A stretch of DNA of 64,000 nt from a virus (lineage: Duplodnaviria; Caudoviricetes): positions 1 to 64,000 of IMG/VR virus record IMGVR_UViG_3300032335_000777; one strand, given 5' to 3'. The position numbers were made by a program, and so were the translations under genes. Within the stretch, counting starts at the first letter, position 1. Each line of letters opens with the position of its first letter. Shown one piece after another: positions 1 through 8,775 of the stretch. Under the pieces are notes generated by a model. The model worked only from the letters and a program-made list of their open reading frames with translations, searched no databases and had not been told where the DNA came from.

Positions 1-288
1 CTTTATGCCAGAGCAACTCTTCATCTAGTTGAAACCAAGTGGAAAGGATATGCAGCACTCATTCCAGAGTTTATTGTCTGTGACAGTACAAACTATTACA
101 ACCCGCTCATCTACACTCTTACACAAGAAGATTTGGCAGATTGTTACAATGGCTTCACTCACAAAGGGAGAAACTATCCTGGTGTGAAAGAAACTATTGA
201 AGATCTTAAATGGGCTTTGTACAATGGTGTCTGGAACATCTCCAGAACAAATTATGAAAATAAAGGAATCGTAAACATTAGGGGATAA
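1..288 (+). CDS. Partial CDS, C-terminus of probable PD-(D/E)xK exonuclease
   Basis: Frame 1 open from base 1 to TAA at 286-288 (LYARATL...EFIVCDS...); LY followed by a FIV strand fits the tail of phage PD-(D/E)xK nucleases; recombination context. Confidence 0.45.
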   Translation, partial: LYARATLHLVETKWKGYAALIPEFIVCDSTNYYNPLIYTLTQEDLADCYNGFTHKGRNYPGVKETIEDLKWALYNGVWNISRTNYENKGIVNIRG

Positions 289-289
289 A

Positions 290-7207: not shown

Positions 7208-7462
7208 ATGGAACACACTGATGTTTTAAACCCCTTTGGAACCCACGAAGTATTGAAGGTTATTGACGAGAACAAAAAACCTAACGAATGGTGGAAAGAT
7301 TATGTCTCACTTAATGAACCTGAAATTGAAAATGAATTCTACGTTCTTTTCCCAGATGGTCTCCTGGTTAAAAAGGGGAGAACCAAATTCAAAACCAGCG
7401 ACTATCTCAAGGATCAAAAGTTTAAAAGCTTTAAATCCTATTATGAAGAAGTTCAGGTTTGA
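7208..7462 (+). CDS. Hypothetical protein
   Basis: 84-aa ORF. Confidence 0.65.
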   Translation: MEHTDVLNPFGTHEVLKVIDENKKPNEWWKDYVSLNEPEIENEFYVLFPDGLLVKKGRTKFKTSDYLKDQKFKSFKSYYEEVQV

Positions 7463-7871
7463 AGGTGATCCTAACCTTTATGGTTGGAAGACAAAGCCTG
7501 TTGTAGGCAGTGTTTACACTGTCAAGGACATGAACTTCATGAGGCACAACTTTGGAGGCTGGGTAGGTATTATAGAAGAGGATGTATTGAAATGGAAAGA
7601 CTTTGTACAAGTTGATATGAATAACTTTGACGAGAAAGTGAAAGAAGTTCTCAATGAGATTGAGACTCTCTTGATTAGTAAGAATGCTAAGTATGGTAAC
7701 TCAGCATTAGAACCTCTTGGTGTATTCAGTCAGTTGTCCGCAAAACAAGGACTACTGGTACGCATCGATGATAAGCTGAAAAGAATAAAGAATGGTAGCC
7801 TTGAGAAGGATGATGAAGATGTAGTTAATGATCTTATTGGTTACCTGGTGCTGCTAAAGATTAGTGGATAA
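7443..7871 (+). CDS. DUF1599 / nucleotide-modification-associated domain protein
   Basis: KNAKYGNS...RIDDKLKRI...DLIGYLVL helical motif; start taken at MKKFRF. Confidence 0.75.
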   Translation: MKKFRFEGDPNLYGWKTKPVVGSVYTVKDMNFMRHNFGGWVGIIEEDVLKWKDFVQVDMNNFDEKVKEVLNEIETLLISKNAKYGNSALEPLGVFSQLSAKQGLLVRIDDKLKRIKNGSLEKDDEDVVNDLIGYLVLLKISG

Positions 7872-8222
7872 TGTAAAATATATTTTACAAATGAGTGACT
7901 TATCTTTCATTGTGCTTTACATTACGTATTAATGCATGACAAATCATACGTATAATTGCATGAAGATTTAGGAAAAATTCATGCACATTTGTCGCACATT
8001 TAGTGAATTTTTGCGACAAAAATGTCCAGTTTATTATTCAAAAAACTAGACAGATTCGTCCCAGATTTAGTCAATATTTGGGACTATATTTTGGCACTTT
8101 TTTCTATTTGCTGCTAAAACATGTAATAAAATAGTGACAATTACGGAAGATATTCGAATTACAAGGGTAAATTTTACAACTTTCTACCCTCGTTAACTTA
8201 TAAGTTACCAAATTGGGAACTT
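7872..8222. repeat. Array of about 14 distinct, tightly packed inverted repeats/palindromes
   Basis: e.g. TGTAAAATATATTTTACA; TGCATGAA-N13-TTCATGCA; TTTGTCGCA-N15-TGCGACAAA; GTCCCA-N15-TGGGAC; AGGGTA-N15-TACCCT; TAACTTATAAGTTA. Confidence 0.9.
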
Positions 8223-8232
8223 TTGTTAACTT

Positions 8233-8775
8233 TTAGAATAACTTCTTACTAATTCCCAAACTGTGAATTTTTGTCACAGGTTGATATTGGTATTGGAATA
8301 GATACTTGTTGTCCAAGTAGGAAACTTTTGCGCCTGGATCTAACAGAGAGTTGATGCTTGCGCCTATATATATTCCTTTAGGCTTTTGTATAATAGTCTT
8401 GGTCTCTGTGTTGGTGATAGTATTTGTTATTGTAGGGATTTTGAAATCGTTTGTTACACTCATTTTAAGCACGTCTCCCAGCACTTCTCCATTTACATAG
8501 GTGTTACCATATTCAAAAGGAGTTGTCGCACTGAAGCTCTTAATTGTAGGCTTGTAGTCAACAAGGATTGTATCCCTAAGAACTTGTGTTTTTATCCACA
8601 TTTTTGGCACATAAACTGTGTCCCTAATTTCTTTGTAAACTGTATCAGTTTCTGTTCTTGTAGTGAATCTATAGATTTCTTCAACTTCAGGTTTTGGATA
8701 GATGATGAATGTTAGGATCACTCCTGCAAAGAATGCTAGAATAGCAATTTGGATTTTTTGTGCGTCAGGTGTCAT
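8233..8775 (-). CDS. Membrane-anchored protein (possible spanin-like)
   Basis: N-terminal TM helix, DTVY/DTI repeats, C-terminal beta strands ending in F. Confidence 0.5.
   Translation of the reverse strand: MTPDAQKIQIAILAFFAGVILTFIIYPKPEVEEIYRFTTRTETDTVYKEIRDTVYVPKMWIKTQVLRDTILVDYKPTIKSFSATTPFEYGNTYVNGEVLGDVLKMSVTNDFKIPTITNTITNTETKTIIQKPKGIYIGASINSLLDPGAKVSYLDNKYLFQYQYQPVTKIHSLGISKKLF

Follow-up and report, generated by a model that had tools for sequence, protein, structure and literature searches.

The DNA analyzed here, hereafter called the window, is a stretch of 64,000 nucleotides taken from the start of an IMG/VR virus record of 109,983 bp, which is rated linear and 95% complete. An ORF that leaves the end of the record (genome positions 109285–109983) seemingly resumes at window positions 1 to 289, which suggests that the record is probably a circularly permuted and nearly complete genome without true ends. 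The genes are organized into two arms, wherein a + strand arm runs from ~87.5 kb across the record ends to position 7871, and a − strand arm carrying late genes runs from 86,358 down to 8233. This two-arm layout is crAss-like, and the genome includes giant ORFs of 4825, 2378, and 1835 amino acids. The Bacteroidota −7 box TAnnTTTG is located 16 to 63 nt 5′ of seven late phage genes, and this placement argues that the phage host is a member of the Bacteroidota. The names of related contigs are typical for freshwater metagenomes.

The + and − transcription arms converge on a 361-bp gap (7872–8232) that contains no genes (Table 1). Homologues of p1, which borders the gap on the + arm, are present at 100 or more related loci, and p2 on the opposite side served as the anchor for collecting related loci (n = 160). 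A search for cultured relatives returned none for the DNA or for p2, whereas the C-terminal domain of p1 matched hypothetical proteins only.

Table 1 Dyad units of the convergent gap and the two flanking genes (window coordinates)
Feature	Position	Strand	Description
p1	7263–7871	+	Last gene of the + arm; C-terminal ~85 aa match phrog_1485 (function unknown)
U1	7872–7889		Perfect 18-bp AT palindrome adjoining the p1 stop codon
U2–U4	7890–7956		Weak dyads and a 17-nt direct repeat; kept only in close relatives and a few others
U5	7957–7985		Right half and loop homologous to the 3′ coding end (..LGKIHA) of ORFs in relatives
U6	7988–8020		Orphan copy of a G:C-class abiE operator (DUF6088-type AbiEi); 25/27 identity to host site
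U7	8023–8052		Orphan operator copy, matching a subfamily of 241-aa AbiEi proteins; 25/28 identity in the core, 30/33 with flanks
U8	8058–8084		Orphan copy of a C:G-class abiE operator (DUF6088-type AbiEi); 25/27 identity to host site
U9	8083–8119		Copy of a DUF6577-type abiEi promoter/operator region
U10–U11	8120–8160		Aligns with a degenerate copy of a module from relatives
U12 and flanks	8158–8197		Resembles one host palindrome; kept in ~25 relatives, without compensatory changes
U13–U14	8194–8232		Conserved 3′ flank of p2 in 55–80 relatives; not a canonical terminator
p2	8233–8775	−	Last gene of the − (late) arm; 180 aa, no family

Re-inspection of the sequence confirmed that the dyad units listed in a first-pass annotation of this DNA are present. 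The gap contains 11 dyads whose arms are perfect over 6 bp or more and whose loops do not exceed 20 nt, and these cover 239 of its 361 bases. This density exceeds chance: 500 dinucleotide shuffles of the sequence gave 3.5 ± 1.9 dyads, with one shuffle reaching 11, and the value for the gap is the maximum over all 360-nt windows of the 110-kb genome (mean 2.9, SD 1.75). The weak dyads U2, U3, U10, U11, and U14 have arms that are short or mismatched. Spacers of 15 nt are present in U6, U8, U9, and U12, as first described. The units U6 through U9 (7988–8119) are adjacent, with centers at 8004, 8037.5, 8071, and 8104 that are spaced 33.5, 33.5, and 33 bp apart.

The annotation had also held that each unit differs in sequence. 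This needs correction for U6 and U8, two paralogues (GTCnCA-N15-TGnGAC) with a common core and one compensated arm position, and for a 17-nt direct repeat with copies at 7923–7939 and 7947–7963. No common repeat exists beyond these, and CRISPR arrays, REP/BIME elements, and iterons were rejected on this basis, in agreement with the original view.

Folding z-scores for the gap lie between −4.5 and −4.8 on both strands, for RNA and DNA alike, with no strand preference. Scores of this strength are what might be seen if the dyads were nucleic-acid structures, such as terminators, hairpins that stabilize 3′ ends, a noncoding RNA, an origin or terminus, or a packaging signal. Also consistent with such roles are a cumulative GC-skew maximum near 8.8 kb and the highly transcribed intergenic regions of phage phi14:2. 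However, strand-symmetric folding is better explained by duplex dyads than by a strand-specific RNA, as was favored at the outset. An Rfam covariance-model search of the gap returned only mir-3 (E 0.12), which is far under the gathering score. RNA or ssDNA hairpins were likewise rejected by a search for covariation, since arm changes among the phage copies are mostly uncompensated, and the loops are conserved or inverted. Furthermore, the 13- to 15-nt loops and AT-rich stems are unlike the canonical terminators found elsewhere in this phage, which are GC-rich, short-looped, and T-tailed. Indeed, no intrinsic terminator (GC-rich stem, loop of 3–8 nt, and T-tract) is present in 7872–8232, and the sole terminator-like site reported (8261–8279) falls within the p2 gene. 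For an origin or terminus, the GC-skew extreme near the gap is confounded with gene orientation, and some relatives are without the array. Thus, the origin, cruciform, and ncRNA alternatives put forward by the annotation gained no ground, and we regard a structural role as the least probable of the explanations considered here.

Signals for transcription initiation also were sought. A sigma-70 promoter scan of the gap found nothing, and the Bacteroidota sigma-A −7 box TAnnTTTG is absent from 7872–8232. The sigma-70-like sequence TTTACA-N16-TAAAAT, which is located before accessory genes of relatives, was considered as a general promoter and was rejected for this phage.

Counterparts of U6 and U8 were identified in host genomes. 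A consensus pattern for these two units that specifies 21 bases was run against prokaryotic genomes, one for each species, and was found in at least 120 bacterial genomes, where fewer than one match is expected by chance. Among the matches listed (at least 120), almost all are labeled Bacteroidota, with two from Ignavibacteria and one from Balneolaceae. The site occurs singly in each matching stretch and is also single copy in three whole genomes. It is a 27-bp palindrome composed of 9-bp arms and a 9-bp center. In 119 of the 120 host copies among the matches listed, the bases at the fourth position of the two arms are complementary. The arm classes among these 120 listed matches are A:T (43), G:C (42), and C:G (34).

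The host site lies mostly 12 to 21 nt upstream of a gene for a protein of ~200 aa that matches DUF6088 (E 1e-63 to 1e-90) and PADLOC AbiEi (E ~1e-70), and the next gene encodes an AbiEii toxin (PF08843). On the sense strand of the gene, the palindrome includes TAAATTTG, which is the −7 box. This position and the embedded −7 box indicate that the palindrome is the promoter/operator of the host abiE operon. AbiEi is an autorepressor that binds inverted repeats at abiE promoters (PMC7319586; PMC3985639). In Streptococcus agalactiae (IR1/IR2) and for Rv2827c of Mycobacterium tuberculosis (IR1–IR4), the inverted repeats overlap the abiEi-abiEii promoter (PMC7319586; PMC3985639), and the Bacteroidota sites, of which the phage units are near-copies, occupy the same position. 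Binding has been published for the AbiEi proteins of these two species only. Unlike the 23-bp repeat pairs of those operators, the Bacteroidota sites are 27 to 28 bp long, with 9-bp arms and a 9- to 10-bp center. At six host loci (L170, L219, L230, L250, L260, and L264), more palindromes with the same architecture and other arms, for example of the GTAACA type, lie 10 to 60 bp past the abiE operator, which suggests that hosts cluster several operator types too.

U7 corresponds to a different set of host sites. Its arms pattern is present in 12 of 401 sampled Bacteroidota genomes versus 0 in the reversed control, and at eight of 10 loci examined the site is located 13 to 32 nt upstream of an AbiEi-type gene, whose product is 241 to 247 aa where intact. 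Two representatives of these loci match PADLOC AbiEi (E 1e-56) and DUF6088 (E 1e-12). The longer identity given for U7 in Table 1 relates window positions 8020 to 8052 to one host U7-type site; the arms of the window copy carry one mismatch, and those of copies in relatives are perfect.

For U9, a loose pattern of the arms only showed no enrichment over the reversed control. One U9-like host site is found 50 nt before a gene that matches DUF6577 and PADLOC AbiEi (E 5e-92), and one of eight DUF6577 loci has a U9-like site 10 nt upstream of the gene, with an AbiEii gene downstream. The site at this DUF6577 locus equals window positions 8083 to 8096 (14/14), which hold the left arm of U9. Its reverse complement matches window positions 8100 to 8119 at 19 of 20 bases, and at 20 of 20 in close relatives.

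U12 has a possible counterpart at one host locus, where a palindrome shares 11 + 13 identical arm and flank bases with the phage unit at the same 15-nt spacing. A truncated Fic-N-like ORF follows this palindrome at a distance of ~40 nt, and a U7-type abiE operator lies 710 bp away. A stricter U12 pattern occurred in one of 201 genomes, with no clear neighboring gene, and two 14-nt matches in coding DNA were dismissed as chance. U12 is perhaps also a copy of a host-type operator.

Judged by these identities, U6 through U9 are copies of the operators of at least three AbiEi subfamilies. The annotation had proposed that the units are sites for autoregulated host antitoxin or defense regulators and had suggested a search of host genomes. 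This search placed the U6–U9 palindromes upstream of Bacteroidota abiEi-abiEii operons, and the proposal is borne out for these units and perhaps for U12. It does not extend to U5 or to U1–U4, U10–U11, and U13–U14, for which the searches made found no host counterpart. Nor do the units represent 14 different regulators, because every one of the four confirmed units falls within the AbiEi family, albeit in several of its subfamilies.

The left arm of U5 is part of the 17-nt direct repeat. The U5 pattern was found in two of 301 host genomes, with GC-rich spacers, and this pattern and a BLAST search of 7868–7990 against 301 genomes produced only chance matches or matches to coding sequence. U5 is a recombination relic of a coding 3′ end and not a host-type operator. 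The right arm of U1 and the A-run that follows are kept in ~45 relatives, where U1 opens a module that precedes accessory genes, and host-operator searches with U1 were negative or uninformative. The module that aligns with U10–U11 consists in relatives of a −10-like box and a TTCGGA/TCCGAA terminator-like hairpin; this hairpin is common among them, and U11 is a degenerate version of it.

No gene lies downstream of the phage units U6 through U9, and profiles for DUF6088, DUF6577, and AbiEi_4 matched no phage gene at E ≤ 1. The units are therefore orphan copies and not operators of an operon. Unlike known abiE operators, the phage copies lack a gene, an intact promoter box, and a cognate phage AbiEi. 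The sequence TAnnTTTG is kept in 114 of 120 host copies among the matches listed versus one of the 31 distinct phage copies collected from the window and its relatives. The box has been lost in different ways, by changes at unit position 7 in U6 (A>C) and U8 (A>G) and by changes of the center in other relatives, and the arms are kept throughout. This is the pattern expected if protein binding, rather than transcription, is under selection. In many phage copies, one half-site is mismatched or the arms are hybrid, and such hybrid combinations of half-sites were seen in one of the 120 host copies among the matches listed.

Sites for a host regulator are known from other phages. The Spo0A boxes of the lytic Bacillus phages phi29 and Nf (PMC2731898) are used to the advantage of the phage, and the phage DNA examined here likewise matches host sites without a gene for the regulator. 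The Spo0A boxes shut the phage down from within its promoters and origins, whereas the array is orphan, is clustered in a gene-free gap, and corresponds to a defense antitoxin rather than a developmental regulator. The palindromes could instead be sites for a divergent DNA-binding protein encoded by the phage that shares the specificity of AbiEi, with the array serving in autoregulation or as partition-like DNA. Many small + strand ORFs upstream of the gap have no family, and 5% of the genome may be missing, which leaves room for such a protein. However, the profile searches named above revealed no candidate, the units are confined to this gap within the 110-kb genome, and several specificity classes would need several regulators. 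We consider a phage-encoded regulator very unlikely.

The locus is variable among related phages. The p1-p2 gap ranges from −4 to 1174 bp and is 60 bp or less in nine of 127 relatives; any of the four operator families (U6–U9) is present in only 38 of 127. On these counts, the array is dispensable. In some relatives, a tRNA-Thr(UGU) gene directly follows p1 (L086, L091, L093, L096, L108, and L165:1750–1830). The gaps of L004, L010, L014, L065, and L165 contain an amidase-like gene of ~215 aa, those of L006, L013, and L016 contain a gene for a Cys-rich protein (~65 aa) together with an 80-aa ORF on the other strand, and others are almost empty. Differing cargo between the same two genes identifies this junction of the arms as a hypervariable accessory-gene hotspot.

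Pieces of the array differ in their phylogenetic spread and are swapped even among close relatives. The alignment of the locus in related phages, which the annotation had also suggested, thus revealed units that are swapped, flipped, or lost. The center of U8 (window 8058–8084) is inverted in L002 and L003. Such centers, which measure 13 to 16 nt overall, are also inverted between the arms of the TTGTTAC and TTTACAA families (L021, L074, and L075). The flips are small inversions such as arise when inverted arms recombine or when the template is switched from one arm to the other. Relatives also hold other arm variants of the operator families, including a T:A-class unit and a form of U7 with GTCAAGT arms.

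Despite this turnover, individual units can be strongly conserved. The gap of L083 is 97.8% identical to that of the window phage, versus 83 to 89% identity at third codon positions of the flanking genes. Similarly, U6 and its loop have hardly changed in relatives that retain only ~66% identity at the third codon positions of p2. As measured against these codon positions, the phage lineage keeps the operator copies under selection, above the synonymous rate.

The turnover could also mean that the units are nonfunctional leftovers of host or mobile-element regulatory DNA that is decaying in a recombination hotspot. The range of gap lengths and the varied cargo (tRNA-Thr, amidase, and Cys-rich protein) are compatible with this view, as are the coding relic in U5, the inversion of unit centers between relatives, and the arm mismatch present in each of the window copies of U7 and U9. 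It does not readily account, however, for four operators from different abiE subfamilies that have each been cut down to ~30 bp, sit at even intervals, and bear no remnant of abiE coding sequence. Nor would decaying DNA be expected to leave U6 nearly invariant where synonymous sites have diverged by about one-third, or to lose the promoter box in different ways with the arms kept. For these reasons, we view leftovers as an unlikely explanation.

Palindromes of the abiE type with an intact −7 box also are present in other phage lineages, on 18 viral contigs. In three of these (L321:1809–1835, L322:3751–3777, and L333:1209–1235), the palindrome runs right up to the start codon of the large terminase gene. 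In L325 (1644–1670), it lies 60 nt upstream of a gene for an M15-type (lysis-type) peptidase, and in a 167-kb phage (L320:5562–5588), it resides inside a FEN-like ORF. Several of these palindromes have hybrid G/A-class arms. These locations indicate that the abiE-type palindrome also serves, or invades, ordinary phage regulatory DNA.

The comparisons establish, at the level of nucleotide sequence, homology to abiE operators, orphan status, promoter loss, selective constraint, and modular turnover. We propose that U6 through U9, and possibly U12, are orphan operator decoys for host AbiE regulators that benefit the phage, a reading to which we assign a probability of roughly 0.55. Host AbiEi, alone or with AbiEii, would bind U6–U9 on replicating phage DNA, where the many copies of the sites would act as a decoy and perturb AbiE control in favor of the phage. 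This might occur if the antitoxin, or an inactive antitoxin-toxin complex, is held on the DNA, or if derepression is forced and the antitoxin is resupplied. Structural work in a 2026 preprint indicates that the DNA-binding residues of AbiEi remain exposed in the AbiEi:AbiEii complex. The remaining units would be cassette-boundary and relic sequences of the accessory-gene hotspot.

Several considerations weigh against this proposal. The 2026 preprint also suggests that viral DNA, by sequestering AbiEi, would activate AbiEii, which would make the phage sites a liability. The dispensability of the array counts against the proposal too, as does the use of intact-box palindromes before terminase or lysis genes of other phages, since such sites can act in ordinary phage gene regulation. 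Titration of an autorepressor might also raise the amount of toxin relative to free antitoxin, and mismatched half-sites or hybrid arms could weaken cooperative binding.

The sites may bind host AbiEi without serving as a decoy. They may instead act as a regulatory input, through which the phage would detect that a cell carries AbiE or would use bound AbiEi as a roadblock between the convergent arms, or as the feature that is sensed by AbiE systems, with loss of AbiEi to the sites triggering the toxin. The discussion in the preprint casts sequestration of AbiEi by viral DNA as just such a trigger. Also in keeping with non-decoy roles are the intact-box palindromes of other phages at the terminase start and before the lysis-type peptidase, and the position of the array exactly at the point of convergence, where a canonical terminator is lacking. 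However, a pure liability is not expected to be kept above the synonymous rate or to be diversified into several specificities. Each AbiE type is present in only a few percent of genomes, which makes an essential role as a roadblock unlikely, and the absence of the array from some relatives also counts against this reading. We consider these non-decoy roles unlikely. A decoy that is beneficial to the phage is favored because the lineage keeps and diversifies the sites.

A more specific form of the decoy proposal is offered tentatively, and we lean against it. It holds that hundreds of promoter-dead abiE operator copies, produced as the phage replicates, act as a DNA decoy of multiple specificities that captures AbiEi or AbiEi:AbiEii of several subfamilies, such that abortive infection is disarmed. 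Related phages would then exchange parts of this decoy repertoire as they compete with host AbiE types in an arms race. The neighboring tRNA-Thr gene of some relatives perhaps backs the decoy by replacing tRNA that is damaged by an AbiEii-type toxin. Toxins of the AbiEii/MenT type act on the 3′ ends of tRNAs (2026 preprint), and the tRNA-Thr(UGU) gene sits immediately before the U6 operator copy in these relatives; the window phage has no tRNA gene at this location. A phage tRNA beside abiE operator copies might thus constitute a second counter-measure.

There is precedent for noncoding phage elements that mimic a component of a toxin-antitoxin abortive-infection system. The pseudo-ToxI repeats of phage PhiTE, reportedly described by Blower and colleagues in 2012, are said to neutralize ToxIN. 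Pseudo-ToxI is an RNA antitoxin that acts on the toxin, whereas the mimic in the array is double-stranded DNA of the operator of the antitoxin. Phage proteins also keep the antitoxin side of TA-type defenses effective. T7 uses Gp4.5 against the DUF1814 system SanaTA, as summarized in a preprint (bioRxiv 10.64898/2026.01.19.700257), and T4-like phages carry orphan antitoxin-like proteins that act against DarTG1 (PMC11825919). In contrast to these proteins, the counter-measure proposed for the array is DNA.

In the literature searched, we found no DNA-level counter-measure against a TA system, and reports on intergenic repeats or termini of crAss-like phages and on phage operator decoys for antitoxins described no such arrays. 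There is a substantial chance that the array represents a new class of anti-defense element. On the question of how AbiE systems sense phages, AbiE researchers have speculated that viral DNA might sequester AbiEi. A natural phage lineage that keeps under selection near-exact, gene-less, and promoter-dead abiE operators of several subfamilies opens this question to direct tests that pair U6–U9 DNA with defined proteins. If the sites work for the phage, a DNA-level decoy would join the list of anti-defense mechanisms, and gene-free palindrome clusters in phages may then read as a catalogue of the host regulators that a phage faces.

Two smaller features deserve mention. A 13-codon ORF (MSDLSFIVLYITY) spans window positions 7891 to 7932 over U2–U3 and undergoes partly synonymous changes in relatives; it could be a mini-ORF or could have arisen by chance. 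A tRNA scan of the window found none, and a tRNA-like T-arm is present outside the window at genome positions ~91,150 to 91,230, in a 430-bp gap of the + arm, where it probably marks a tRNA gene of the phage.
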